A stretch of 32,000 nt of DNA from Halogeometricum borinquense DSM 11551 (GTDB taxonomy: Archaea > Halobacteriota > Halobacteria > Halobacteriales > Haloferacaceae), in the NCBI RefSeq assembly GCF_000172995.2, contig NC_014729.1:870001-902000 (forward strand). The letters run 5' to 3'. Position numbers and translations under genes: made by a program. A model generated the notes under the pieces. The model saw nothing but the letters and a program-made list of their open reading frames with translations, searched no databases and was not told the DNA's origin. How positions within the stretch are numbered: the first letter of the stretch is position 1; the number at the start of each line of letters is the position of its first letter. Of the stretch, positions 12,307 to 27,989 are shown in pieces.

Positions 12307-13152
12307 TTAGGAGTCGTCTTCGTTTTTCAGTTCTTCGAGTTCGGCTTCGACATCTTCTTCGGCAACGTCCACCTCGTCCAGTTCCTCGTCCAAGTCAGCA
12401 CTGGCCGTCTCGCTGCCGTTCTCGGATTCGGCTTCGGATTCGGCTTCGGCCGTGGACTTGCCCATCTCGGTTTTGAGTGTCTCCAGTTCGGTATCGACTT
12501 CGGAGTTCGCCCGGCCGGTCTCCAGTTCGCGGTCGATGGCGTCCTTGTCGGACATCATCTCGTCGAACGCACCGGTATCGACGAGTTCGTCCATTGCGGC
12601 CGAACGGGCTTCCATCTCGTCGGTCTGGTCTTCGGCGCGTTCGAGGGCGCGGGAAACGTCGCCCATCTCGTCGCCCACACCGGACACCGCTTCGGAGACA
12701 CGCGAGGAGGCTTCGGCGGCCTCGTAACGGGCCTTCATCGTCTCCTTTTTGGTGCGGAACTCCTCGATGCGGTTCTGGAGTTCGTTTTTCTTATCGACGA
12801 GGTTGTCCTGCGTTTCCTGCAGGTTCGCAATCTGCGACTCTAAGTCCTCGATCTGATTCATCTTGGCCTGCTTTTTCTCCAAGGCGCGCTTGGCCAAGTC
12901 GTCCCGATCCTGTCTGACAGCCTGACGGGCTTGCTCGTTGTGCTTTTCGACGTTCTCTTCGAGGCGACGCTTCTGAATCTCCAGACGCTTTTTCTGCGTC
13001 GTCAGGTCGGCAATACCCTGCTTGACCTGCTGGAGTTCGTCACGCATCTTCTCGTAGGAGTAATCGAGCGTCTCCGTCGGGTCCTCCGCGCGATTGAGGA
13101 GGGAGTTGATTTTCGAACGGACGACGTAAGACGCGCGTGAGAGGATTCCCAT
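12307..13152 (-). CDS. pspA: PspA/IM30 (Vipp1, ESCRT-III superfamily) protein with an acidic C-terminal tail
   Basis: The N-terminus MGILSRASYVVRSKINSLLNRAEDPTETLDYSYEKMRDELQQVKQGIADL... is the canonical PspA/IM30 start. Long coiled coils follow, then an Asp/Glu-rich tail. Confidence 0.88.
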   Translation of the reverse strand: MGILSRASYVVRSKINSLLNRAEDPTETLDYSYEKMRDELQQVKQGIADLTTQKKRLEIQKRRLEENVEKHNEQARQAVRQDRDDLAKRALEKKQAKMNQIEDLESQIANLQETQDNLVDKKNELQNRIEEFRTKKETMKARYEAAEASSRVSEAVSGVGDEMGDVSRALERAEDQTDEMEARSAAMDELVDTGAFDEMMSDKDAIDRELETGRANSEVDTELETLKTEMGKSTAEAESEAESENGSETASADLDEELDEVDVAEEDVEAELEELKNEDDS

Positions 13153-13204: not shown

Positions 13205-13834
13205 GTGACCGAGACGGTACTCATTCCGGGAGGACGTGACGTCCGCGGGACGCTCGACGCCGCTGACGACGGAATCAACGATTGCAGTGAGGGCGATAAA
13301 ACGAGTACAGATACCGTGGTAATCGCTTGCCCGCCGCATCCACAACACCGCGGTCATCGCGGCGACGACCGACTCGTTGCGGTCAGCGAGGAACTCAACC
13401 GACGCGGGATCGACTGCCTGCGGTTCGACTACGGCGCGTGGGACGAGGGCTACGGTGAACGCGCCGACACGCTCCGGGCCGTCGAGTGGGCGAGCGAACA
13501 GTACGACCGCGTGGCTCTGTTCGGATTCAGTTTCGGTGGCGCGATGGCGCTTCTCGCCGCCGTTGAAGGTGCGGACGCGGCCGCTGTCTCAGCACTCGCG
13601 CCAGCGCACAAACTCGCGGATGATCTGGACGTGGTCGCCGCGTTTCCGGAGATACCTGTTCCGGTTCAAGTTGTATACGGGACGCGAGATGATGTGGCCG
13701 ATGCCGAGCGCGTCGCAGCGCGCGCCCGCGAGTTCGAACAGTCGGTCGTCGCGCTCGAAGCGGACCACTTCTTCGTCGGACAGCACGGCAAAGTAGCGGA
13801 GACGGTGTCGGACTTTCTAACGTCGTGGCTTTAG
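13205..13834 (+). CDS. Alpha/beta-fold hydrolase (dienelactone-hydrolase/BAAT-like, small)
   Basis: Nucleophile elbow GFSFGG, a later ...YGTRDD... and ...ADHFF (candidate His). GTG start at 13205. The stop overlaps the stop of the convergent gene by 4 nt (13831-13834). Confidence 0.7.
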   Translation: MTETVLIPGGRDVRGTLDAADDGINDCSEGDKTSTDTVVIACPPHPQHRGHRGDDRLVAVSEELNRRGIDCLRFDYGAWDEGYGERADTLRAVEWASEQYDRVALFGFSFGGAMALLAAVEGADAAAVSALAPAHKLADDLDVVAAFPEIPVPVQVVYGTRDDVADAERVAARAREFEQSVVALEADHFFVGQHGKVAETVSDFLTSWL

Positions 13835-14235
13835 GCCGCGCCCTCGCGGTATCCGTCGGCGAATCGGATGCCGAGTGCGAGGAGGACCATCATGATTGTG
13901 AACGCCCAGAACGCTGTCCACACCGCCGCGTCGAGAGTTGCGTTATAGGCGTACGTTACCGCACCGGCAGCGATCGCGACGACAAACGGAGCGAGGAATC
14001 GGCGGTCGGTCACACTCCCGCCCGTATTACGGTATTCGACGGCGTATCCCCAGACGTTGCCGACGGTGAACTGAAAGAGGATGGCACCGAGTACGCCGCT
14101 TGCGATGGATTTGAGGACGGGAAGCAGTTCGAGCGGTCGTCCGTGGAGCGAGATCGCCGTTCCGGCGAGGAAGACGGCGAAGACGACGGTGTTCCACGAG
14201 TGGAGACCGTTTCGTAGGCGGTTGTGGAGGGACAT
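13831..14235 (-). CDS. 4-TM small membrane protein, paralog 2 of a tandem pair
   Basis: 134 aa. It shares the block FQFTVGN[IV]WGYAVEY.N.GGS.TD..FL.PFV.AIA.GAVTY with the neighbouring ORF 14354..14761. By-eye identity is around 50%. Confidence 0.65.
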   Translation of the reverse strand: MSLHNRLRNGLHSWNTVVFAVFLAGTAISLHGRPLELLPVLKSIASGVLGAILFQFTVGNVWGYAVEYRNTGGSVTDRRFLAPFVVAIAAGAVTYAYNATLDAAVWTAFWAFTIMMVLLALGIRFADGYREGAA

Positions 14236-14353: not shown

Positions 14354-14761
14354 TCAGGCGGTAGACTCCCGGTATCCGGCGGAGAACTGGGTGACGACTG
14401 CGACGATGCCCGCCACGACGATGAACGTCCAGAACGCCGCCCACGCGGCGGCTCCGAGTACCGGATCAATGCGGAAGTACGTCACCGCACCGACGGCGAT
14501 GGCGGCGACGAAGGGCGTGAGGAACGGTAGGTCGGTCCAACTGCCGCCCGCGTTGTAGTATTCGACGGCGTACCCCCAGATATTGCCGACGGTGAACTGG
14601 AAAGCGACAACGGCTGCCAGCCCGCTTATCACGGCGACAAAGGCAGAGTCCCTTCCGAGCGGGGTGTCCTGAAGGGACAACGCGAACCCGGCGAGGAACA
14701 CAGCGAGCATCAGGGCGTGCCACGGGCGGAGACGGTCTCGCAATCGATTTTGGAGGGCCAT
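14354..14761 (-). CDS. 4-TM small membrane protein, paralog 1 of a tandem pair
   Basis: 135 aa with the same architecture and conserved central block as 13831..14235. The N-terminus is MALQNRLRDRLRPWH versus MSLHNRLRNGLHSWN. Confidence 0.65.
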   Translation of the reverse strand: MALQNRLRDRLRPWHALMLAVFLAGFALSLQDTPLGRDSAFVAVISGLAAVVAFQFTVGNIWGYAVEYYNAGGSWTDLPFLTPFVAAIAVGAVTYFRIDPVLGAAAWAAFWTFIVVAGIVAVVTQFSAGYRESTA

Positions 14762-14930: not shown

Positions 14931-15254
14931 TCAGTTGTATCCGCGCCACCGACGCCCACAGTTTTTGCACTTGAAGAATCGCGTCGGCGGTTCGTCGGCC
15001 GAGCCGGTCTGTTTGATGGTGTACCACGCCTCGCCGTGGCCGCAGTCTTCACAGGTCACGTCCGTCGCGGTGGGTTTGCCCTCGAAGTTTGCGCCTTCCT
15101 CGGTTTCGATCACGTCGGAGTCGTCCTGTGCCTCAGTGGAGACGAACTCCGACGCGAGGTCCGAGTCCTGCTCTTGTGTGGCACCGCAACTCGAACAGAC
15201 CATCTGGCCGTCCTGATTGTGCATCATCGAACCGCACTCGTCGCAGAACTGCAT
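14931..15254 (-). CDS. tfs: Transcription factor S (TFIIS-like cleavage factor / RpoM family)
   Basis: The N-terminal zinc ribbon is MQFCDECGSMM...VCSSCG. The C-terminal TFIIS-type ribbon is CEDCGHGEAWYTIKQTGSADEPPTRFFKCKNCGRRWR, which includes the acidic hairpin (SADEP). Confidence 0.9.
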   Translation of the reverse strand: MQFCDECGSMMHNQDGQMVCSSCGATQEQDSDLASEFVSTEAQDDSDVIETEEGANFEGKPTATDVTCEDCGHGEAWYTIKQTGSADEPPTRFFKCKNCGRRWRGYN

Positions 15255-15302
15255 ACCGGAACTACGGGTTCGAGCACTAATGTGTTACACGCCTCGCGCG
15301 GG

Positions 15303-15929
15303 TCAGTCGTCGTCTTCGACCATCGGACAGTCCCGAACGCGGAACCGGTCCATCTCGACGACTTCGACAATCTCCGTCCCGTCGTGGGTGCAGGCGAGTT
15401 CGGGCGGGTCGGCGAAGTACGGGCAGTGGTGACAGAACTCCGATTTCGGGACGATATAGTCCTCGTAGCCCGGCAACTCGTCGTCTATAGACTCGGCCGC
15501 CCCACGCGCGCCAACGCTGATGGTCGCGCTCTCGTCTTCGACCAACCCAGCCCACAGTGTGTCGGAGTCGATCTCTTCGACGTCCATCGACTCGAACAAC
15601 GACTTCGTATCGTCGCTGTCGGCGCGGTCGCTATCGTCGGCGTCCTTCCGTCGGCGTGCAACCCGCCGTGCGAGGTCCGAAAGCGGCACGTCGTCGTCGG
15701 TGGGTGCAGGAGAGTCGGGAACCGCGTTCGTCTCCTCCGAGCGATGTACTGCGTTTGTTGCATCCGACCGGTCCGCCGCGGTGGTGCGGTCGTCACTTTC
15801 TCTATCACTGTCGGCTCCGGACATCTCGTCGGTCTCGGCGTCGTGATTCGTTGTTTCGGCAGAATCGTCATCGGTGACGCGCCGAGCGATGTCCGACAGC
15901 GGTTCGTCGTCGCCGTCGTCCGTGGTCAC
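15303..15929 (-). CDS. Highly acidic protein with two PLSD[IL]ARRV motifs and a C-terminal 4-Cys domain, function unknown
   Basis: The GTG start overlaps the upstream stop (GTGA, 15926-15929). Roughly the first 140 aa are low-complexity D/E/T/S-rich. The C-terminus is YIVPKSEFCHHCPYFADPPELACTHDGTEIVEVVEMDRFRVRDCPMV. Confidence 0.55.
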   Translation of the reverse strand: MTTDDGDDEPLSDIARRVTDDDSAETTNHDAETDEMSGADSDRESDDRTTAADRSDATNAVHRSEETNAVPDSPAPTDDDVPLSDLARRVARRRKDADDSDRADSDDTKSLFESMDVEEIDSDTLWAGLVEDESATISVGARGAAESIDDELPGYEDYIVPKSEFCHHCPYFADPPELACTHDGTEIVEVVEMDRFRVRDCPMVEDDD

Positions 15930-16774
15930 TCCTCAGTCACCTCTTCGCTGTCGGTTCCCTCGCGTTCGCGGTTGTCTCGCTCGGATTCGGTGTCTCCGTC
16001 ATCGAACACCGGTTCCGGCGCAGCGTCCGTCTCGTCCGGCGGTTCGAGCGCCGGTCGGCGGCCGGTCGTGAGCGATGCCGACCCGAAGAACCCCTGTTTC
16101 TCTCGGACGCCGTCGAACGTCTCCCGACAGTGCGGACAGTACGGAACGTCCAAAAGAGAGATATCGACCGTGTGTTCGCACGACTGGCAGTTCGCCGTCG
16201 AGATTCCCTTGCGGTTCGCTTCGCGCTTGAGTTCGGTCGCCGCCACCCGTTTTGCGGCGGTGCGTTCGGCCTCAGCCGTCCGTTTTCGGAGGTCTACGAT
16301 GGCGTTCGCTACGGTGTCGAGTTTTGCTTCCGTCTCGTCGGCCGTGTCAGTAAGATACTCCAGTACGTCTTCGTAGTTCTCGAACCCGGCGTCCATCCGA
16401 CGTTCGAGCTCCGAAACCGTCTCCCGAACGTCGGCGACTGCGTTGAGTGCGCTCTCGGTGTCGGCCGCCAGCTCGGGATGACCGTGGTCTTCCGGCGCTT
16501 TCCGGTCCGATTCGCGCTTTACCTGAATGACCCGTTCTCGAAGGTCTGTTACCTTCTCGTCGAGGTCGGCTTCGAGGTCGATGACGCGTTCCTCAAGGTC
16601 GTCTGCACGACCTCCCAACTCTCCATCCGCAGACAGATCGCCCTCGTCAACGAGTCGGTACGCCGTAAGCGCTCGCTTGACCAGTTCAGACCGGTCTATA
16701 CCCGACTCAGCCGACTTCTTTTCGACCCATCGCTCTAGTTCGTCCGACAACGTCTCCACCCGGTCCCCTCCCAT
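15926..16774 (-). CDS. Ribbon-helix-helix (CopG-like) protein with a long coiled coil, a CxxC...CxxC zinc ribbon and an acidic tail
   Basis: The N-terminus RVETLSDELERWVEKKSAESGIDRSELVKRALTAYRLV fits the RHH pattern. The coiled-coil repeats read DLEERVIDLEADLDEKVTDLRERV. The zinc ribbon is CQSCEHTVDISLLDVPYCPHC. Confidence 0.65.
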   Translation of the reverse strand: MGGDRVETLSDELERWVEKKSAESGIDRSELVKRALTAYRLVDEGDLSADGELGGRADDLEERVIDLEADLDEKVTDLRERVIQVKRESDRKAPEDHGHPELAADTESALNAVADVRETVSELERRMDAGFENYEDVLEYLTDTADETEAKLDTVANAIVDLRKRTAEAERTAAKRVAATELKREANRKGISTANCQSCEHTVDISLLDVPYCPHCRETFDGVREKQGFFGSASLTTGRRPALEPPDETDAAPEPVFDDGDTESERDNREREGTDSEEVTEE

Positions 16775-16835
16775 TCGTCAGAATCTTGCGTTATCCTGAC
16801 TTAAAGATTGTCTGCTCGCAGGACAACTCGTCAGC

Positions 16836-17672
16836 TCACCGAATCTTCCGTACGTCACTCACGTCGAATCCGCCGTCGTGTATCTGCGTCTCGAAGCGGA
16901 CGATATCTTCGGACTCCAATCTGGAGAGGACGCCGCGGAACTCTTGGACGACGAGCGTTCGCGCCCGCTTTGATCCGCCGGTCTCCCACTGGAACTGGAG
17001 TGTTCCATCGACCGCGTCCATCAGGTGCGCGAGTTCCGTCCGTTCCAGCGTGTCGCGGCCGACGAGCGCGAGAATGAGACCGCCCCATCGGTGGGCCGCC
17101 TTGCTGATTCCACGTATCACCATCGAAATGTCGTTCCACGACATCTCGTCGGAGACGGCCGCAACGAGGTCGGTGATAGAGTCGATGACGACGAGATTAC
17201 CGCTTGCGTGTTCGCTCAGATAGTTTCCGAGGGCGGTCAACACCGACTCGCGGTTGTGGCGTTGACCGAGGTCTTGGAGCGTCGTGGCTTCACCCGCGTA
17301 CCACTCGCGCGGGATGGGACTCGGCCGAAAGTACGTCGCAGAGAAGTCGCGGAAGTTGATTCGCTCGGTAGCGGAATCGACCAGCGATTCGTCGAACACG
17401 TACGACATCTCCCGGCTGAGACTCTGTTTATCGGCGGTAAAGGAGATGTAGTGGACCTCTGCGGGCGGACTCGACTCCGAGTGGAGGTCGCCGTAGTAGA
17501 GATCGAACAGGTCGTCGTCGGTGCCGTAGACAGCGTTCATGGTCGCGCTCGTGAACATGAACTCGCGGGCACCGGCACCGGGTTCGCCGACGAGAAGGAC
17601 GACCGAGCCGGGTGGTGCGCCGCCATCGATGATACGGTCGAGGCGGGACACGCCGAACGGGATACTGTTCAT
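16836..17672 (-). CDS. KaiC/RAD55/RecA-superfamily single-domain protein with a degenerate Walker A (likely pseudo-ATPase)
   Basis: IPFGVSRLDRIIDGGAPPGSVVLLVGEPGAGAREF matches the start of the KaiC-like COG0467 fold, and the Walker-B-like NLVVIDSITDL is present. The P-loop reads GEPGAGAR (nt 17565-17588) instead of GxxGxGK[ST]. Confidence 0.8.
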   Translation of the reverse strand: MNSIPFGVSRLDRIIDGGAPPGSVVLLVGEPGAGAREFMFTSATMNAVYGTDDDLFDLYYGDLHSESSPPAEVHYISFTADKQSLSREMSYVFDESLVDSATERINFRDFSATYFRPSPIPREWYAGEATTLQDLGQRHNRESVLTALGNYLSEHASGNLVVIDSITDLVAAVSDEMSWNDISMVIRGISKAAHRWGGLILALVGRDTLERTELAHLMDAVDGTLQFQWETGGSKRARTLVVQEFRGVLSRLESEDIVRFETQIHDGGFDVSDVRKIR

Positions 17673-17696
17673 GCTCGGCAGTTGCCGTGACGTCCG

Positions 17697-18674
17697 TTAA
17701 TCGTTTCGCCGGATGTCCGCGCCGGTGTTTCGACCGCGTACGACGCGTACTTCACCGGCCACGTCCGCAGCAGCAAGCGCGGCCTCTCCTGCGTCGCGTG
17801 CCTCGTCTGCGTGTTCGGCGTCGGTGATGGCGTAGACGGCCGGTCCCCACGACGACTGTCCCGCACCGTAACAGGCGGGGTTGTCTTCGACGGAGGCGAC
17901 GAGTTCCCCGACCGGCGGACGGTAGACGCCGCCTTGCTCGTCGGCGTACCACGCGCCGTTGAGACGGCCGATTTCGGAGACTGCTTTTCCGAACCGTGAC
18001 GCGCTTCCGTCGGCAACTGCGGGGAGCAGTCGGCGCGAGAGCACGCCCGAGATGCGGTCTGCGATGTCTGGATCGGCGTGTTCGACCACAGAACGCATAC
18101 TTTCGTCTTCTTCGTCGCCGTTCCGTCCGGCGTCGGCGTCGGGAACGACGAGCAGAAAGCGCCAGTCGTCGGGGACGGCATGGCGAACGGCGACCGACGG
18201 AACGGTCCAGTCGCCGTCGGCCGGTCGGTCGGTGGTAAAGCGTGCCGTCGGATGGCCGGCGTCAACGAGGACGCCACCGGTTTCGAACGAGGCGACGCCG
18301 ATTCCGGATCGGCCGCCGCGGCCGAGACGAGGAGCGAGTTGCCGTACCGACACCTCGCGGTCGTTCGCGCGTCCGACTGCTACGAGCACGGCGAGCGCGA
18401 GTTGCGTCCCGCTCCCGAGACCGGCGTGTCGCGGAAGTGCTGACGACACCGTGACGTCGGCCCCCGGAACGTCGAGGATTTCGACCGCCGTTTCGACGTA
18501 GGGCCGAGCGTCCCGGTGTGAGCAGTCAATCCCGTCCGCTGGAGTCGCCGTAACGACGGTTTTCGGTTCGTCAAGACCGACACCGAGTCCGCCGTAGAGC
18601 CGTTGGTGGGCGAGGCTTAAGTTGAGAAAGCCGAAGTGGAGGCGAGCACCGGTCGAGACGCGGACGCGACTCAT
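17697..18674 (-). CDS. Beta-ribofuranosylaminobenzene 5'-phosphate (beta-RFAP) synthase homolog, GHMP-kinase superfamily
   Basis: VRVSTGARLHFGFLNL...RLYGGLGVGLDEP resembles the RFAP-synthase N-terminus (RxHxGxxDL...GGxG). A GHMP motif-2-like LPRHAGLGSGTQLALAV is also present. Confidence 0.78.
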   Translation of the reverse strand: MSRVRVSTGARLHFGFLNLSLAHQRLYGGLGVGLDEPKTVVTATPADGIDCSHRDARPYVETAVEILDVPGADVTVSSALPRHAGLGSGTQLALAVLVAVGRANDREVSVRQLAPRLGRGGRSGIGVASFETGGVLVDAGHPTARFTTDRPADGDWTVPSVAVRHAVPDDWRFLLVVPDADAGRNGDEEDESMRSVVEHADPDIADRISGVLSRRLLPAVADGSASRFGKAVSEIGRLNGAWYADEQGGVYRPPVGELVASVEDNPACYGAGQSSWGPAVYAITDAEHADEARDAGEAALAAADVAGEVRVVRGRNTGADIRRND

Positions 18675-18777
18675 CGGGCGAACTTCCGGACCGGCAAGTA
18701 TGTTGGTTTCGACGGTGGCAACTCTGGTCGGTGTTGTGAGTCACAGGTCGTTATGGTCGTCCGTACAAGGAGAGATG

Positions 18778-19235
18778 GTTCCGTTCTCCCGTCCGCCTCG
18801 GGTTGGGAACCCGACTGGCACCTCGACGATGAGGGCCAAAGGGCGGGGGGAGAACGGGGGGTGCCTTGGTCTGCCCAATGTGTCACCGAGGCGTGGAGGG
18901 GTGGGGTGGGAGCGGCCACGGCCCGGGAACACACGATTTCGGATGCGCCCCGGCGACCCGGGGCGCAGTCACGCTCTGCGTCGGGATAGGCGACAACGCG
19001 TACGACGTACGCGCCAGCTGACGACGGCTCGCTGCAGACCGCCGTCGCCTGCTATCGCCATCCGACTGCGGTGAGCGCATCTGCGGGCGCCCATGGTCAT
19101 CCGCCGGTCCTGCGGGACTCGGAACGTCGTCGGATTTGTGGGGGCGAAATGGACGCCCTGAATACGTCACCGCGTTTTCCGCTTGGGACGGGACGCACTT
19201 CAAGCGGGGAGACGCTGAATCAGGATTCAGTCGTT
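18778..19235. ncRNA. Candidate large structured RNA or structured 5' leader; family and strand unresolved
   Basis: There is no credible ORF; all frames give Arg/Pro/Gly-rich shadow peptides. The region stays GC-rich, unlike normal intergenic DNA here, and is dense with nested helices:
- 18781-18790:18848-18857 (10 bp) plus 18793-18797:18842-18846 (5 bp). This enclosing helix contains hairpins 18798-18814 (7 bp, loop GGG) and 18816-18838 (4+4 bp).
- 18863-18870:18885-18892 (8 bp, one G.U on the plus strand).
- A perfect 9-bp hairpin at 18945-18966 (GCGCCCCGG-CGAC-CCGGGGCGC).
- 18997-19013 (7 bp).
- 19022-19028:19041-19047 (7 bp).
- 19180-19208 (7 bp).
- 19215-19230 (6 bp). Confidence 0.45.
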
Positions 19236-19496
19236 TCAAGGGTTAATCCGCCCATTTAACTCAGTTTAATTCGGCTAAACTGTCGTCTCGAATCCGTCAA
19301 ACCATTCGGATACATGACAAAACACCCGATCACCATTGCGGCTAGACACACATGCCGGCAGCAGCAGGAACGGAAGCTCTGACTATGAACTGCGACCATT
19401 CACACTGTCCGCCTCGGATGCGGAAATATGCACGAAAGTGGTCACCTAAGCCGCACAGATCGGCGGCATTTGGTGTCGTTCGCCACTTCGTGACAG

Positions 19497-19514
19497 ATAA
19501 AAATACGAAAAACG
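19497..19514 (-). terminator. Oligo-T terminator candidate after the pyrG-guaA-small gene operon
   Basis: On the minus strand, two T5 runs (plus-strand aaaaa at 19499-19503 and 19508-12) begin 12 nt after the TAG stop at 19524-19526. Archaeal termination typically uses such T tracts. Confidence 0.5.
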
Positions 19515-19523
19515 AGGGGTCGG

Positions 19524-19847
19524 CTACTGTTCTGCGAGTTCCTCTGCGACCACGTCGGCCGTGAGGAGTGCGGGATCGACAGCGAGGTCAGTCTGTCCAC
19601 GGGCGTACTCCGGCAGGGAGTCGCGCGAGTACGTGACGATTCGAACCTCGGGATTTTCTTCGCGTGCGACGGGGATGATAGAGGCGTCGTCCATGTCCGT
19701 GAGGACGAGGGTGTCAGCCGAATCGATGCCCGCATCAACGATGGAGTCTCGGGTAGCGACGCCGTTGAGGCGCACCAAGTCGATTCCGAGGTCCGTCAGC
19801 GCGTCGCCGAGTCCGTCTTCGTCGGGTCCGGTGATGAGCACGGTCAT
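19524..19847 (-). CDS. Small Rossmann-like (TrkA-N/CoA-binding-like) protein, function unknown
   Basis: The ATG at 19847 overlaps the guaA stop (ATGA). The sequence [27 protein letters not shown]...[30 protein letters not shown] has a beta-alpha-beta pattern. The track's longer 143-aa version has a basic, non-haloarchaeal N-terminus and lies inside guaA. Confidence 0.65.
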
Positions 19848-20761
19848 TCGTACTCGATGGTCGCGGGTGGCTTGTGCGTTACGTCGTAGACGACGCGTGC
19901 GACGTTGTCGTTCTGCCCCGTGATACGCGACTGGATGCGCTGGAGCGTTTCCCACGACAGTTCTTGTGCACGTGCGGTCATACCGTCACGCGACTCGACG
20001 GAGCGAACGGAAACGATCCATCCGTGGACGCGGTTGTCGCCCTTCACACCAGTTCCTTTGCCGATGACGGCGGCGAACGCCTGCCACGGATCGTACTCCT
20101 CCAGTTCCTCTTCGACGACGTGGCACGCGTGTCGTGCCACTTCGACTTTTTCCTCGGTCACTTCGCCGACGATGCGGACGGCGAGACCGGGGCCGGGGAA
20201 CGGCATGCGTTCGGAGACGACCGATTCGAGACCGAGTTCGCGGGCCACCTCACGAACCTCGTCTTTGTACAGGTCGCGGACGGGTTCGACGATACCCTCG
20301 AAATCGACAACGTCCGGCAGGCCGCCGACGTTGTGGTGTGATTTGATGTTGCCCTCGGACTCGATGCGGTCGGGGTAGATGGTCCCCTGCACGAGATAGT
20401 TGGCGTCGGTGTCCTTCGCTTCACGCTCGAACTCGCGGATGAACTGCTCGCCGATGACCTTCCGCTTTTCCTCGGGATCGATGACGCCTTCGAGTGCGCC
20501 GAGGAACCGGTCTTGCGCTTCGACGACGCGAAGCGATTCCATGTAATCGAACGTCTCGCGGATTCCTTCCGTCTCGCCCTTTCGCATCAGGCCGGTATCG
20601 ACGTAGACGGGGGTGAGTTGGTCACCGATTGCACGGTACGCGAGGGCGGCGGCGACCGACGAGTCCACGCCGCCGGAGAGAGCGATAATCGCGTTCGCAT
20701 CGCCGACCGTCTCCTGAATCTCCTCGGTTGCTTCCTCGATGAACGAATCAGTATTGACCAT
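19844..20761 (-). CDS. guaA: GMP synthase [glutamine-hydrolyzing], subunit B (ATP pyrophosphatase)
   Basis: PP-loop [10 protein letters not shown], a dimerisation domain, and the typical C-terminus ...[11 protein letters not shown]. There is no GATase domain, as expected for the archaeal split enzyme. Confidence 0.93.
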
Positions 20762-22422
20762 TATGCTTGCACCTCCGCGTCCGCGACAATTTCACGTGCG
20801 TCCAGTTCGCCGAGTACAGCCTTCACGAAGCCGACGAACGGGGGACTTGCCCGATCCGGGCGCGAGCGGAACTCGGGATGGAACTGCGTCCCGAGGAAGT
20901 ACGGGTGGTCCGTCCGTTCGAGAATCTCCATGCGGTTGCCCGCTCGTCCGGAGAACGTCAGCGCGCCGTCTTCGAGGTCGTCGATGTAGTCGGGTGCAAC
21001 CTCGTATCGGTGACGGTGGCGTTCCGTACAGACGGTGTCGCCGTAGACGTGCGCCGCCAGCGAATCTTCGGTGATGTCCGTCTCGTGCGCGCCGAGACGC
21101 ATCGTACCGCCCATGTCTTCGGTCTCGTACTGTTCGGGGAGCAGATCGATAACGGGGTCGGACGTATCGGAGTCGATCTCCGCCGAGTGGGCGTCCTCGT
21201 GGCCGAGAACGTTCCGCGCGTGTTCGACGACGGCCATCTGGAAGCCGAGACAGAGACCGAGGAACGGAACGTCGTTCTCACGGCAGTAGCGAATCGCCTC
21301 GATTTTCCCGGCCGTCCCACGCGTCCCGAATCCGCCGGGAACGACGACGCCGTCGGCTTCTTTCAGACGGTTTTCGTGTTTGTCGAGCATCTCGTCTGAG
21401 TCCACCCAGAGGATGTTCACGTCGGTCTTCGTCTCGATACCGGCGTGCTTCAACGCCTCGTTGACGGACATGTAGGCGTCTTCGAGGTCGTACTTGCCAA
21501 CGAGAGCGATATCGACCTCTTGTTCGCGCTCGCGCGTAACGAGTTCGCGCCACTCGTTGTCGCGTTCGGGCTTCGGACGCGCCTCCGTCGAGAGGCTCAG
21601 TTGCTCCATCACGTACTCGTCGAGGCCTTCCTCTTCGACCATCAGCGGCACGTGGTAGATGTCCTCCACGTCGGAGTTCGAGAACACCGCTTCCGTGGGA
21701 ACGTCGCAGAACAGCGCAATCTTCTCTTTCGTGCTGGCGTCGAGTTTGTCCGGGCTTCGGCCGACGAGAATATCGGGTTGCAGGCCGATGCTCCGGAGTT
21801 CCTTTACGGAGTGCTGCGTGGGTTTGGTCTTCTGCTCGCCGTTTTTCGAGTACGGGACGAGTGTGACGTGAGTAAAGAGAATATCGTCGTCGTCTTCCTC
21901 GTGAGCGAACTGTCGAAGCGCTTCGAGGAACGGCATGCCCTCGATGTCACCCACAGTGCCGCCAACTTCGACGATACAGACGTCCGTCCCCTCGGCCGCC
22001 TCGCGGATACGCCGCTTGATGTCGTCGGTGACGTGCGGGATAATCTGGACCGTCTTTCCGAGGTAGTCGCCCGCGCGCTCCTTCTCGATGACGTGTTGGT
22101 ACGTTTTGCCCGTCGTGACGTTGTGGTCGGAAGTCATATCCTCCCCGAGGAATCGTTCGTAGTTCCCCAAGTCGAGGTCAACCTCGCCGCCGTCTTTCAG
22201 GACGTACACCTCACCGTGTTGGTACGGGTTCATGGTCCCGGCATCGACGTTCAGATACGGGTCAATCTTGACTGCAGTCACGTCGAACCCGGCGTTCGAG
22301 AGCAGTCTGCCCGTACTCGCGGCTGTGATGCCTTTGCCCAGTCCGGACATCACACCTCCTGTTACGAAAATGAACTTCCGACCCAGAGACGGGTCGTACC
22401 CGGTTTCGGGTTCCTTCGGCAT
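20761..22422 (-). CDS. pyrG: CTP synthase
   Basis: [17 protein letters not shown]..., then the GATase domain with GLCLGFQ and ...HRHRYEV. The ATG at 22422 is preferred over the track's 22473. The stop overlaps the guaA start by 1 nt (TAATG). Confidence 0.95.
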
Positions 22423-25295: not shown

Positions 25296-27989
25296 TTATC
25301 CGGTGTTTTTCATTCCCGCCGCGATTCCTTTCACCGTCAATCGAAGCGTCCGTTCTTCGTCTTCGGTCCGGTGCGTCTGCGAGAGCAGATGCGTCTGGAG
25401 GAGGTTCAGCGGATCAACGTAGGGGTTGCGGCGGCGAAGGCTCTCGTCTAACCACTGGCGTTTGAGAAGCGATTCTCGACCGATCACGTCGAGGACGAGG
25501 TCGTGAGCGCGCTCGTACTCCTCGAAGAGACGCGGATAGAACGCCTCGCGCAGGTCGTCGTCCGCGAGAGCCGCGTAGTGTTCTGCGATGCCGAACTCGG
25601 TCCGCGCGAGGGCGAGCGAGGCGTTATCCAGCGTCGTCCGGAAGAACGGCCACTCGTCGTACATCTCTCGGAGGGTGGCTCTGTCGCCACCCTCATCGAG
25701 ATACGTCTGGAGGCCCGTTCCGAGCGCGTACCAACCGGTGATGATACAGCGCGACTGGGTCCACGAGAACACCCACGGGATGGCCCGTAAGTCTTCGACA
25801 GTTCGCTCACCCGACCGCGAGGCGGGTCGAGAGCCGAGGTTGAGGTCTTCGATGACCGTAATCGGCGTCGCCTGCTCGAAGTAGGAGACGAAGCCTTCGG
25901 ATTCGAGGAGGTTACGGTACTCCTGTCGCGCCGCTGCCGCCATCGTGTCCATCGCGTCGATCCACGCCTCGGGAACGTCCTCTTCGGGTTCCTGTATCGC
26001 CTCGTGGCGCGCGCGGACTTGCGCGTTGAGCATCTGTTCGAGGTTGCGCTCGGCGATATGGGGGTTGGCGTACTTCTCCGCGATAGCCTCACCCTGTTCG
26101 GTGAACTTGATCTGGCCGGTCACCGTCTCGTTCGGCAGCGCCAGCATCGCCTCGTTCATCGGGCCGCCGCCCCGGGAGATAGAACCTCCCCGCCCGTGGA
26201 ACAGGCGCATTTTCACGTCGAAGTCGTCGCAGATGGCTGCAAGACGGCGCTGGTTCTTGTAGAGGTCCCAGTTCGCGGCGAGGTAGCCGTTCTCCTTGTT
26301 CGAGTCGGAGTAGCCGAGCATAATCTCTTGGACACCGTTACGGGCAGCAAGAACCTGCTCGTATGCCTCGTTCTCGAACAGCGACCCCATGATGCGGCGC
26401 GCACCGTTCAGCGCTGACTCGGTTTCGAGGAGGGGAACCACGTCGAGACCGCAGTGGTCCGGCAGGGACACGACACCCGCCTGATCTGCGAGGAACAGCA
26501 CTTCGAGGACGTGGCTCGGCTCTTCGGTCATCGAGATACAGTAGGTGTCGATAGCGCCGACGCCGTACTCCCGTTGCCACTCGCCCAGCTTCTCGAACCG
26601 CGTCAGCACGCGGTCTGCCGTATCCGAGAGGTCCTCGCGGTTCGACAGATCCACGAGCGGTTCGTCCTGCAAGATGGCCTCTGTTAGCACCGCAACGCGC
26701 CCGTCTTCGTCGCGGTCGTAGTAGTCAATTCCTTCGCGCGCGAGCGCCTCGTGGACCGCTTCCGTGTGGTTTTCGCGGTGGTCACGCAGGTCGAGGCTGG
26801 CGAGTGTGAAGCCGAACGTGTCTACCTGTCGCATCAGCGGACTCACGTACTCGTCAGCGACGACATCCGCGCCGTTGTCACGGAGACTCTGATCGATGAT
26901 CTCCAGATCTTCGAGGAGTTCGTGGTGGGCTGCGTACCCGTCGGGGCGAACGTCTTCGATGCGGCGGATGCGTTCGCGCATCAGCTTGAGTTTCTGCCGG
27001 TAGGGTTCCTCGGGGTAGCGCTCTTCGGTCTCCTCGGCGACGACTGGGAGACGTTCGCGGTCTGCGATCAGCGACCGCTCGAACTCGGCACCCACGTCGA
27101 TACGCGACCCGTCCTGACTGAGAACGCCCGAGAGGCGTTTGAGGGCGTCGCTGTACTTCTCTAAGACGACGGATCGCTGCCGTGCCAGTGTGTCCTCAGT
27201 CACTTCGGGCGTGACGAACGGGTTGCCGTCACGGTCCGATCCGGCCCACGACCGGAACTCGAACAGTTTCGGTACGTCAACTTCAGGATACTCCTCCGCC
27301 AGAACGTCCTCGAACTCGGAGTACACCTCTCCGACCACGTCGAACAGGATCGATTCGAGGTACCACTGGACGTTTCGCGCCTCGTCCTGCGGTTCGGGGC
27401 GTCGGCCGCGGACCTGCGAGGTCTGCCACAGACTCGTCACCTCGGCGTCAACCTCACGCCACAGTTGCTGCCGTTCGCGGTCGGTGAGGTTGCGTTCGTC
27501 CATCTCCTCGATGCGCGAGGCGATAGAGCGGAGCTTCGCTTTTACCGTCTTCCGCCGGGCTTCGGTCGGGTGGGCGGTGAACGTCGGTTCGATGAGTACG
27601 TCGTCGAGGACGCGCTGAACCGTTTCGGGGTCGGCGCCGCCGCCTGCGAACGACTTGACAGTGGCGACGAGTCCGTCCTCGAGATCACCCGCCTGTGAGG
27701 CCTCGCGGATCGTCCGGACGCGTTCGCGTTCTTCAGCGAGATTAATGAGCTCAAAGTAGGTTGTGAATGCACGAGCGACGACGCTCTCTCCGTCCGGTGA
27801 GAGGCCATCGATAACTTGCAGTAACTCCGTGCGTGAGTCGAGGTCTCCTTTTCGGTAGTCGATGGCGGCCGTCCGGATATCCTCAACCGTCTGGAATGAC
27901 TGCGTAGACGACTGCGATTCCAAGACGTCTCCGAGAAGGGCCCCTAGCTCCCGAACATCTCGTCTGACGTCTCGTGTGTGTAACTCCAT
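25296..27989 (-). CDS. ppc: Phosphoenolpyruvate carboxylase (bacterial/plant-type Ppc)
   Basis: 897 aa with VLTAHPTE-like TFTAHPTEARR, GYSDSNKENGYLAANW, FHGRGGSISRGGGP and the family-typical C-terminus ...GIAAGMKNTG. Confidence 0.95.
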   Translation of the reverse strand: MELHTRDVRRDVRELGALLGDVLESQSSTQSFQTVEDIRTAAIDYRKGDLDSRTELLQVIDGLSPDGESVVARAFTTYFELINLAEERERVRTIREASQAGDLEDGLVATVKSFAGGGADPETVQRVLDDVLIEPTFTAHPTEARRKTVKAKLRSIASRIEEMDERNLTDRERQQLWREVDAEVTSLWQTSQVRGRRPEPQDEARNVQWYLESILFDVVGEVYSEFEDVLAEEYPEVDVPKLFEFRSWAGSDRDGNPFVTPEVTEDTLARQRSVVLEKYSDALKRLSGVLSQDGSRIDVGAEFERSLIADRERLPVVAEETEERYPEEPYRQKLKLMRERIRRIEDVRPDGYAAHHELLEDLEIIDQSLRDNGADVVADEYVSPLMRQVDTFGFTLASLDLRDHRENHTEAVHEALAREGIDYYDRDEDGRVAVLTEAILQDEPLVDLSNREDLSDTADRVLTRFEKLGEWQREYGVGAIDTYCISMTEEPSHVLEVLFLADQAGVVSLPDHCGLDVVPLLETESALNGARRIMGSLFENEAYEQVLAARNGVQEIMLGYSDSNKENGYLAANWDLYKNQRRLAAICDDFDVKMRLFHGRGGSISRGGGPMNEAMLALPNETVTGQIKFTEQGEAIAEKYANPHIAERNLEQMLNAQVRARHEAIQEPEEDVPEAWIDAMDTMAAAARQEYRNLLESEGFVSYFEQATPITVIEDLNLGSRPASRSGERTVEDLRAIPWVFSWTQSRCIITGWYALGTGLQTYLDEGGDRATLREMYDEWPFFRTTLDNASLALARTEFGIAEHYAALADDDLREAFYPRLFEEYERAHDLVLDVIGRESLLKRQWLDESLRRRNPYVDPLNLLQTHLLSQTHRTEDEERTLRLTVKGIAAGMKNTG

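Follow-up and report, generated by a model that had tools for sequence, protein, structure and literature searches.

Five consecutive open reading frames (ORFs) on the minus strand of Halogeometricum borinquense DSM 11551, at 14931-18674 of a window of 32,000 nucleotides (the whole stretch of DNA that was analysed), contain a strictly linked pair of uncharacterised genes. In order on the minus strand, the string encodes a GHMP-kinase-fold protein, a KaiC-like protein with a degenerate P-loop, a protein with a ribbon-helix-helix (RHH)-like N-terminus followed by a coiled coil and a zinc ribbon (RHH-cc-Zn), an acidic DUF8135 protein, and the transcript cleavage factor TFS, with lengths of 325, 278, 282, 208, and 107 residues, respectively. 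RHH-cc-Zn and DUF8135 make up the pair and probably work together, and the KaiC-like protein and TFS are best read as its frequent but dispensable partners. The original prediction, made from the DNA alone, had described five co-directional genes, the first three separated by 24 and 61 nt, the third and fourth overlapping by 4 nt, and the last two 48 nt apart, and the ORF coordinates agree. It had also proposed a tripartite module of the three central genes. What emerged instead is the strict pair, with the KaiC-like gene as a frequent neighbour that is separable in Halobellus, Halorussus, Halomicrococcus, and Halanaeroarchaeum. Database homologues from H. borinquense are 98-99% identical to the products of the string.

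The RHH-cc-Zn/DUF8135 pair and its gene neighbours

The RHH-cc-Zn gene (15926..16774, minus strand) runs into the GTG start of the DUF8135 gene (15303..15929, minus strand). At the junction (GAG GAG TGA / GTG ACC), the two genes share GTGA at 15926-15929. Overlaps of 4 or 8 nt recur in the majority of some 60 genomic loci, as is usual for translationally coupled genes that encode equimolar partners. The two genes are adjacent in all 123 loci whose RHH-cc-Zn protein has no helix-hairpin-helix (HhH) tail. Four metagenome loci encode an RHH-cc-Zn protein with an acidic linker and a C-terminal HHH_5 domain (Pfam, 7.5e-13). These loci lack DUF8135, and in them the coiled-coil gene retains the KaiC-like gene and tfs at its flanks. 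The 127 assessable loci are thus split into 123 with DUF8135 and no HhH domain and 4 with the HhH domain and no DUF8135, without a single mixed case. Within the RHH-cc-Zn family, HHH_5 was detected in 11 of 141 representatives. We infer that DUF8135 may be the in trans version of the acidic tether and end domain, and its exchange for a DNA-binding HhH domain would support a DNA association of the complex. That the RHH-cc-Zn/DUF8135 module is DNA-associated appears moderately likely.

Gene order was surveyed in two independent scans. The first used one genome per species and two KaiC-like peptide patterns (one of them E[SPA]GAG[AG]REF), detected relatives in 421 genomes, and determined gene order by tblastn around the best 80 matches, which belong to Haloferacales-type genomes and metagenome-assembled genomes (MAGs). 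The second was anchored on the RHH-cc-Zn protein and covered metagenome contigs. The order GHMP, KaiC-like, RHH-cc-Zn, DUF8135, TFS was present in most loci of the first scan and recurred in most of the 80 metagenome loci of the second, in which DUF8135 was adjacent to RHH-cc-Zn in 59 of 63, TFS lay at most 1.8 kb away in 45 of 51, the KaiC-like gene was adjacent in 45 of 60, and the GHMP gene stood beside the KaiC-like gene in 29 of 50. Conserved gene order, for which the original prediction had proposed a survey of Halobacteria, was found in Haloferacales, Halostella, a Halobacterium MAG, and most metagenome loci. The expected synteny of the central trio held for RHH-cc-Zn and DUF8135, which are always linked when the HhH tail is absent, but not for the KaiC-like gene, which is separated from them in several genera. 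Nor is tfs always adjacent, as it adjoins in approximately 88% of loci.

Conserved order need not reflect a shared function. The pair could be the sole functional unit, with the KaiC-like protein as a partner of the GHMP kinase (for instance as a sensor of the kinase product) and tfs as an independent housekeeping gene that happens to lie downstream. This explanation, which we consider rather unlikely, draws on loci in which the string is broken up. Within 6 kb, Halobellus, Halolamina, and Halopenitus loci keep only the GHMP and KaiC-like genes, which are 24 nt apart in the window and many relatives, and Halorussus and Halomicrococcus have the pair alone. Haloferacales share a long collinear block that extends from pyrG to pspA, and each unit has its own promoter-like element (described below). 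However, the most divergent loci contradict mere collinearity. Among the 25 loci with RHH-cc-Zn identity below 42%, the KaiC-like and DUF8135 genes were found in 25 each, the GHMP gene in 24, and TFS in 23, whereas guaA was nearby in only 5 and the hydrolase gene in 13. The retention of the five genes in 23-25 of 25 loci against 5 for guaA argues that the cluster is conserved beyond general collinearity. The complete string is also rebuilt amid unrelated flanks in Halostella and the Halobacterium MAG, and the HhH variant without DUF8135 is nevertheless flanked by the KaiC-like gene and tfs.

Other arrangements were also seen. In Halanaeroarchaeum, the KaiC-like gene is found 5.5 kb upstream of a group made up of RHH-cc-Zn, DUF8135, and TFS. 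In Halobellus, RHH-cc-Zn and DUF8135 are grouped with an inserted UbiA gene and with TFS, and the KaiC-like gene is about 32 kb off. In a Halorussus and a Halobellus locus where the pair is detached from the KaiC-like gene, a small ThiS/SAMP-like ubiquitin-fold gene and a DUF7972 gene are located nearby.

With confidence just short of even, we favour a DNA-associated RHH-cc-Zn/DUF8135 complex that often has the KaiC-like pseudo-ATPase as its modulating partner and, likewise often, tfs as its functional neighbour. Considered separately, a functional link between the KaiC-like protein and the pair is evenly balanced, and a link between TFS and the pair falls on the doubtful side of even. Several observations weigh against the favoured reading. 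The KaiC-like gene is about 32 kb from the pair in Halobellus, is not within 6 kb of it in Halolamina and Halopenitus, and has a closer neighbour in the GHMP gene (24 nt) than in the pair. As a housekeeping gene, tfs might be adjacent for historical reasons. Because the surveyed loci are related by phylogeny, their counts do not represent independent events, and the KaiC-like protein served as the anchor for part of the sample. The mutual exclusion of HhH and DUF8135 concerns four loci, possibly of one lineage. In addition, the RHH match is below the Pfam threshold and the RHH sequence is weakly conserved, and 9 of 141 RHH-cc-Zn representatives have neither the N-terminal region nor the HhH tail, some of which may be fragments.

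Promoter-like elements and transcription units

The Haloferax volcanii counterparts, assigned to locus tags from gene order, are HVO_2628 (GHMP), HVO_2629 (KaiC-like), HVO_2630 (RHH-cc-Zn), HVO_2631 (DUF8135), and HVO_2632 (tfs2). They are preceded by pyrG (HVO_2624), guaAb (HVO_2625), and an RCK_N protein gene (HVO_2626), and followed beyond tfs2 by an alpha/beta hydrolase gene (HVO_2635) and pspA (HVO_2636), the same order as in the window and in Haloferax loci. HVO_2629, HVO_2630, and HVO_2631 are curated in succession as "conserved hypothetical protein", and a literature search of main texts found no paper naming these genes or their UniProt identifiers, in line with the prediction that the three central genes have no assigned function.

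Upstream regions from approximately 110-125 distinct loci were compared, and AT-rich hexamers at -36 to -26 were counted against control windows. Ahead of the KaiC-like gene there is a candidate BRE/TATA-like element (BRE, the element that transcription factor B recognises), CGAAACGATTAAC (17696..17708, minus strand), 25-36 nt upstream of the start codon. The 119 unique upstream regions give the consensus GCca.AAC.cttAaC with close to 100% A/T at -27/-26, and the element is kept in four loci that have no upstream GHMP gene. The RHH-cc-Zn gene is preceded by the TATA-like box CTTTAAG (16800..16806, minus strand), 26-32 nt upstream of its start. An AT-rich hexamer occurs here in 73% of 125 unique regions compared with 17-19% of controls, and YTTAAG recurs across genera. 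For tfs, the TATA-like element is AACACATTAG (15277..15286, minus strand), about 24-32 nt upstream of the start, with an AT-rich hexamer in 60% of 110 unique regions and 4-6% of controls. Haloarchaeal promoters have been described with the BRE CGAAA and the TATA box TTWT (PMC4983044), and a distance of about 30 nt between box and start codon is the spacing expected for leaderless haloarchaeal mRNAs. The TAA stop codon of the GHMP gene sits within the TATA-like element of the KaiC-like gene (17696-17708), which may explain the recurrent 24-nt gap between the two genes.

In H. volcanii, the operon controlled from the top chromatin immunoprecipitation (ChIP) peak of TbsP is HVO_2627-2628, and the genes listed as derepressed do not include HVO_2629 (PMC11023807). 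The TATA-like elements and the limits of the TbsP regulon together suggest that the string comprises at least three transcription units. The upstream sequences indicate the GHMP kinase gene, the KaiC-like gene, RHH-cc-Zn with DUF8135 (the sole bicistron), and tfs as separate units rather than one operon. The original prediction had implied a single co-transcribed operon encoding an obligate three-protein regulatory complex that feeds into TFS. Co-directional genes, short gaps, and conserved order would all agree with it, but we now regard it as very unlikely: TATA-like boxes stand at leaderless distance ahead of the KaiC-like, RHH-cc-Zn, and tfs genes, pointing to the independent starts that the prediction itself had named as counter-evidence; several genera dispense with the KaiC-like gene or tfs as neighbours; and derepression in ΔtbsP was reported for HVO_2627-2628 only (PMC11023807). 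The supplementary files of H. volcanii differential RNA sequencing and of mixed RNA sequencing that we searched named none of these genes, and a scan for sigma-70 promoters and intrinsic terminators is not informative for archaea.

Predicted features of the proteins and of the flanking region

The RHH-cc-Zn family comprises 594 representatives at 50% identity. The Pfam scan of the window protein gave no family above threshold, and NCBI names it "CopG family transcriptional regulator". The AlphaFold2 (AF2) model, with a predicted local distance difference test (pLDDT) of 81, contains helices at 11-24 and 28-43, long helices at 52-92, 100-129, and 134-188, a small beta domain at 193-237 with pLDDT 91-98, and then a disordered acidic tail. 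The N-terminus (residues 6-43; 16646..16759, minus strand) is probably an RHH, putatively DNA-binding, judging from profile comparisons and the model. Pfam RHH_1 (PF01402) matches at E=0.053 and 13.9 bits, below the cutoff of 20.5, and it is not among the families found at E<=0.001 for the 141 family representatives. In hhalign, the family N-terminus aligned with CopG in register over 39 residues with P=5e-4 and a probability of 32%, whereas controls gave P of 0.4-0.8. The two short helices are modelled with pLDDT of about 92, and the turn, for which the RHH pattern is G-x-[ST]-x-[ST]-E, reads SG-IDRSE. A PDB profile search gave a weak match of the N-terminus to AvtR and nothing significant. 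The beta domain is a Cys4 zinc ribbon (16064..16198, minus strand) with an invariant CxxC...CPHC pattern, C196, C199, C213, and C216 being identical in all 141 sequences. The most conserved parts of the protein lie outside the RHH: the first helix turn carries DVRERVIQVKRE-x-D-x-KAP-x-DH-x-HP, the second carries GFENYE, and the zinc ribbon and the GFFGSA..L..G..PALE segment that follows it complete the set. Foldseek with the model returned nothing at E < 1, and hence no significant structural relative. Of the predicted architecture, the coiled coil and the Cys4 ribbon were supported by the model and the invariant cysteines, while the RHH is just probable.

The DUF8135 protein was not matched in a Pfam scan with one copy of the library, but precomputed annotation places PF26456 on 35 of 35 homologues, one of them 98% identical. 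A PDB profile search with this protein found nothing significant. Its composition (30% Asp+Glu, pI 4.05), a doubled motif, and invariant cysteines corroborate the predicted acidic protein with two motif copies and a Cys4 domain. The first copy, PLSDIARRV (residues 10-18; 15876..15902, minus strand), is present in about half of the aligned homologues, and the second, PLSDLARRV (residues 82-90; 15660..15686, minus strand), in 15 of 16, with P82 invariant. A segment from F112 to W126 is also conserved. In the C-terminal Cys4 domain (residues 160-205; 15315..15452, minus strand), delimited by invariant alignment columns, C166, C169, C180, and C201 are invariant and H182 is nearly so. In the HhH variants, the acidic linker starts in a way that recalls the DUF8135 motif, its first segment being PL..[ML]VE-like.

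The KaiC-like protein (16836..17672, minus strand) belongs to the KaiC/RAD55 family (PF06745, COG0467) and is under very strong constraint, as its alignments indicate. Among the best 120 of 1288 homologues, nearly all are exactly 278 residues long, with 63-99% identity, and identity is 60-87% over 80 genome loci (the best 80 of the 421 genomes with relatives). The Pfam KaiC profile matches just the first 30 or so residues, the N-terminal P-loop region, and a PDB search with the KaiC-like profile gave KaiC matches at the P-loop level only. AF2 predicts a RecA fold (pLDDT 81.4, predicted TM-score 0.83). Foldseek matched the model about equally to RAD51 and its paralogues, KaiC, FlaH, and PH0284 (E 1e-10 to 4e-11, TM 0.53-0.64, 12-18% identity). 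The Walker A motif is degenerate (G29-E-P-G-A-G-A35-R36-E37; 17562..17588, minus strand), with Lys replaced by Ala and Thr by Arg. Across 36 sequences, the Lys position is Ala or Gly, the Thr position is Arg, and R36 and E37 are invariant, so that the P-loop reads GAG[AG]REF throughout. In hhalign, A35 and R36 lie opposite K52 and T53 of an approximate KaiC CI sequence, and HMMER alignments to PDB KaiC chains give the same placement. Walker B is kept (LVVID164-S165, strand 160-164), D164 and S165 being invariant. The prediction of a RecA/KaiC fold without a catalytic Walker A thus finds support in the model, its Foldseek matches, and the two substitutions. That Walker A has lost its Lys and Thr speaks against ATP hydrolysis, not necessarily against nucleotide binding, and with the catalytic P-loop residues gone no KaiC-type autokinase/ATPase cycle is expected. 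The loop 117-140 is conserved (S118, P119, P121, R122, W124, Y125, G127, D134, and L135) and modelled with low confidence, a pattern typical of a segment that may become ordered only on partner binding.

The RecA fold and the coiled coil could alternatively point to genome maintenance, with the KaiC-like protein as a non-catalytic recombination/repair mediator resembling RadA paralogues, the coiled-coil protein as an SMC/Rad50-like DNA tether with RHH or HhH ends, and TFS clearing RNA polymerase stalled at lesions. RAD51 paralogues, which are poor ATPases themselves, are among the fold matches, the NCBI family name of the KaiC-like protein is "RAD55 family ATPase", the coiled-coil protein has weak SMC-related and Rad50 matches, and some RHH-cc-Zn variants carry HhH_5, which is typical of RadA and repair proteins. 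However, KaiC, FlaH, and PH0284 match the KaiC-like model equally well, so the fold does not discriminate, and the SMC/Rad50 matches (E 0.002-0.085, far under cutoffs) are coiled-coil noise. There were no repair genes in the neighbourhoods inspected. HVO_2629 is about 2-fold higher in late than in early log phase in the wild type, ΔrdfA, and ΔddfA, independent of cell shape (posterior error probability about 3e-4; PMC10869688), and late log is when replication proteins fall. We therefore consider a role in genome maintenance unlikely.

The two outer genes belong to known families. TFS (14931..15254, minus strand), the tfs2 counterpart, is a bona fide transcript cleavage factor according to its sequence: it exceeds the TIGR01384 cutoff (80.9 versus 64.75 bits), matches Zn_ribbon_TFIIS (PF01096, 4.8e-17) and Zn_ribbon_RPB9 (PF02150, 1.1e-8), and has the cysteines of two zinc ribbons (positions 4, 7, 20, 23, 68, 71, 96, and 99) and the acidic SADEP loop at 85-89. 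The GHMP-kinase-fold protein (17697..18674, minus strand; Pfam GHMP_kinases_N/C) scores above the cutoff of TIGR00144, "beta-RFAP synthase family" (165.2 versus 113.5), but below that of the beta-RFAP synthase equivalog NF040726 (175.9 versus 328). Since haloarchaea lack methanopterin biosynthesis, genome curators deem HVO_2628 unlikely to make RFAP (PMC8305020), and the product encoded here is probably not an RFAP synthase.

Upstream of the string, an 850-nt stretch (18675-19523) between the RCK_N/DUF7126 and GHMP genes contains no convincing ORF, Rfam family, or tRNA, and scanning the complete window for Rfam families and tRNAs gave no match. This stretch is 65-72% conserved in parts within Halogeometricum, and over the final 30-60 nt ahead of the GHMP start conservation is 86-93% in Halogeometricum limi, Halogranum, and Haloprofundus. 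In H. volcanii, HVO_2627 (DUF4397) occupies the matching region, which also contains the strongest ChIP peak of TbsP (PMC11023807). The pyrG, guaAb, and DUF7126/RCK_N genes are linked by overlapping stop and start codons (19844-19847 and 20761-20763), TAATG at pyrG/guaAb and ATGA at guaAb/DUF7126, and the latter overlap suggests that DUF7126 probably starts at 19847 (107 residues) rather than at the GTG of a 143-residue ORF. Just downstream of tfs, 13831-14235 and 14354-14761 encode tandem paralogous small proteins of 134 and 135 residues that are 51% identical, hydrophobic-looking, without a Pfam family, and seen in few related loci. The region is flanked by a PspA/IM30 gene (12307-13152) and a phosphoenolpyruvate carboxylase gene (25296-27989), and the latter is likewise near the cluster in a Halostella locus. 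PADLOC anti-phage defence models gave just coiled-coil and zinc-ribbon noise (E >= 0.0016) and no defence match.

A possible mode of action and comparison with known systems

The translationally coupled RHH-cc-Zn/DUF8135 pair would most likely be the obligate core, a stoichiometric complex on DNA. The coiled-coil protein may dimerise and bind DNA through its N-terminal RHH, and a flexible, acidic tether with docking motifs, ending in a small Cys4 domain, would be provided in trans by DUF8135. In a sister lineage, a fused acidic linker and HhH domain would take the role of DUF8135. The KaiC-like protein would most likely modulate the pair as a binding or scaffold partner that does not hydrolyse ATP, as GvpD does GvpE, or in the way that ArlH serves as a nucleotide-binding adaptor. 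The recurrence of tfs alongside hints at an output directed at RNA polymerase or transcription, perhaps in the late growth phase. The list of proteins quantified in H. volcanii includes HVO_2629, HVO_2630, and HVO_2631, the last with null values only, and Tfs2 was placed in a cluster tied to the early rod-to-disk transition (PMC10869688). The rdfA-sph3-ddfA cell-shape cluster (HVO_2174-2176) was suspected to be related to the string and was dropped, as its proteins and locus differ (PMC10869688).

A more specific version, which we consider quite improbable, is that a Halobacteria-specific, DNA-bound RHH-cc-Zn/DUF8135 complex shows an acidic, flexible, motif-bearing arm to the transcription machinery, with gating by the catalytically dead KaiC-like protein and output through RNA polymerase and TFS at growth-phase or stress transitions. 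If it were true, the DUF8135 arm would correspond in archaea to the acidic domains that serve activation or recruitment in the eukaryotic style. A genuine link to TFS and RNA polymerase would add a new layer of archaeal transcription control; if that link is false, the pair would still be a new DNA-associated family worth naming. Archaeal KaiC-like proteins are abundant, few have a known partner or output, and the cluster provides a conserved test case in the tractable H. volcanii (HVO_2629-2632). It offers a coupled, unstudied pair, a natural HhH/DUF8135 domain swap that points to DNA association, and a strongly constrained pseudo-ATPase. The module is uncharacterised, a well-defined experimental target rather than a solved system.

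Each component resembles a known protein in part. The GHMP-kinase-fold protein shares its fold and the TIGR00144 subfamily with beta-RFAP synthase (MJ1427/AF2089), but it scores below the equivalog level, and the H. volcanii orthologue is only 26-31% identical to the characterised enzymes (PMC8305020). With its probable N-terminal RHH, RHH-cc-Zn is reminiscent of CdrS and CdrL, the haloarchaeal CopG/RHH regulators. However, the RHH accounts for about 40 of its 282 residues and is its least conserved part, its core consists of the three-helix coiled coil, the KAPxDHxHP and GFENYE loops, and the Cys4 ribbon, and ftsZ2 is absent from its context. Its overall layout, in which a zinc ribbon caps a long helical hairpin, is shared with proteins of the COG1579 type (for example MSMEG_4306, PDB 5y06), which lack the RHH and a DUF8135 partner; the Foldseek match, at E 4.9 with TM 0.15-0.18, was not significant.

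For the KaiC-like protein, ArlH (FlaH) is the best NCBIfam match (NF052589, E 1.5e-9), with 37.9 bits far under the cutoff of 215. ArlH is likewise a single-domain KaiC-like protein of about 230-280 residues, FlaH structures are among the fold matches, and ArlH works by binding rather than turnover, with coiled-coil partners. In contrast, ArlH has Walker A and lacks Walker B, the reverse of the protein described here (hhhhD164 kept), and no arl genes were present in any of the loci inspected, so that archaellum genes are not near the KaiC-like gene. KaiC-like ATPases were reportedly proposed as archaeal signal-transduction hubs by Makarova, Galperin and Koonin in 2017 (mBio; cited in PMC6393860). 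The stand-alone KaiC-like domain and its conserved neighbourhood with predicted regulators would fit such hubs, whereas the catalytic P-loop residues are absent here. GvpD is a KaiC/RAD55-family P-loop protein that controls the activity or level of its neighbour GvpE, a coiled-coil DNA-binding regulator. Its P-loop is intact and needed, unlike that of the KaiC-like protein, in which the Lys and Thr are gone; GvpE, a bZIP-like activator, has neither an RHH nor a zinc ribbon; a third partner comparable to DUF8135 is missing from that system; gas-vesicle genes are absent from the locus described here; and no sequence match to GvpD or GvpE emerged, although no search aimed at one was made. The likeness lies in the arrangement that both haloarchaeal systems have in common, with acidic proteins and a KaiC/RAD55-family gene product encoded beside a coiled-coil regulator.

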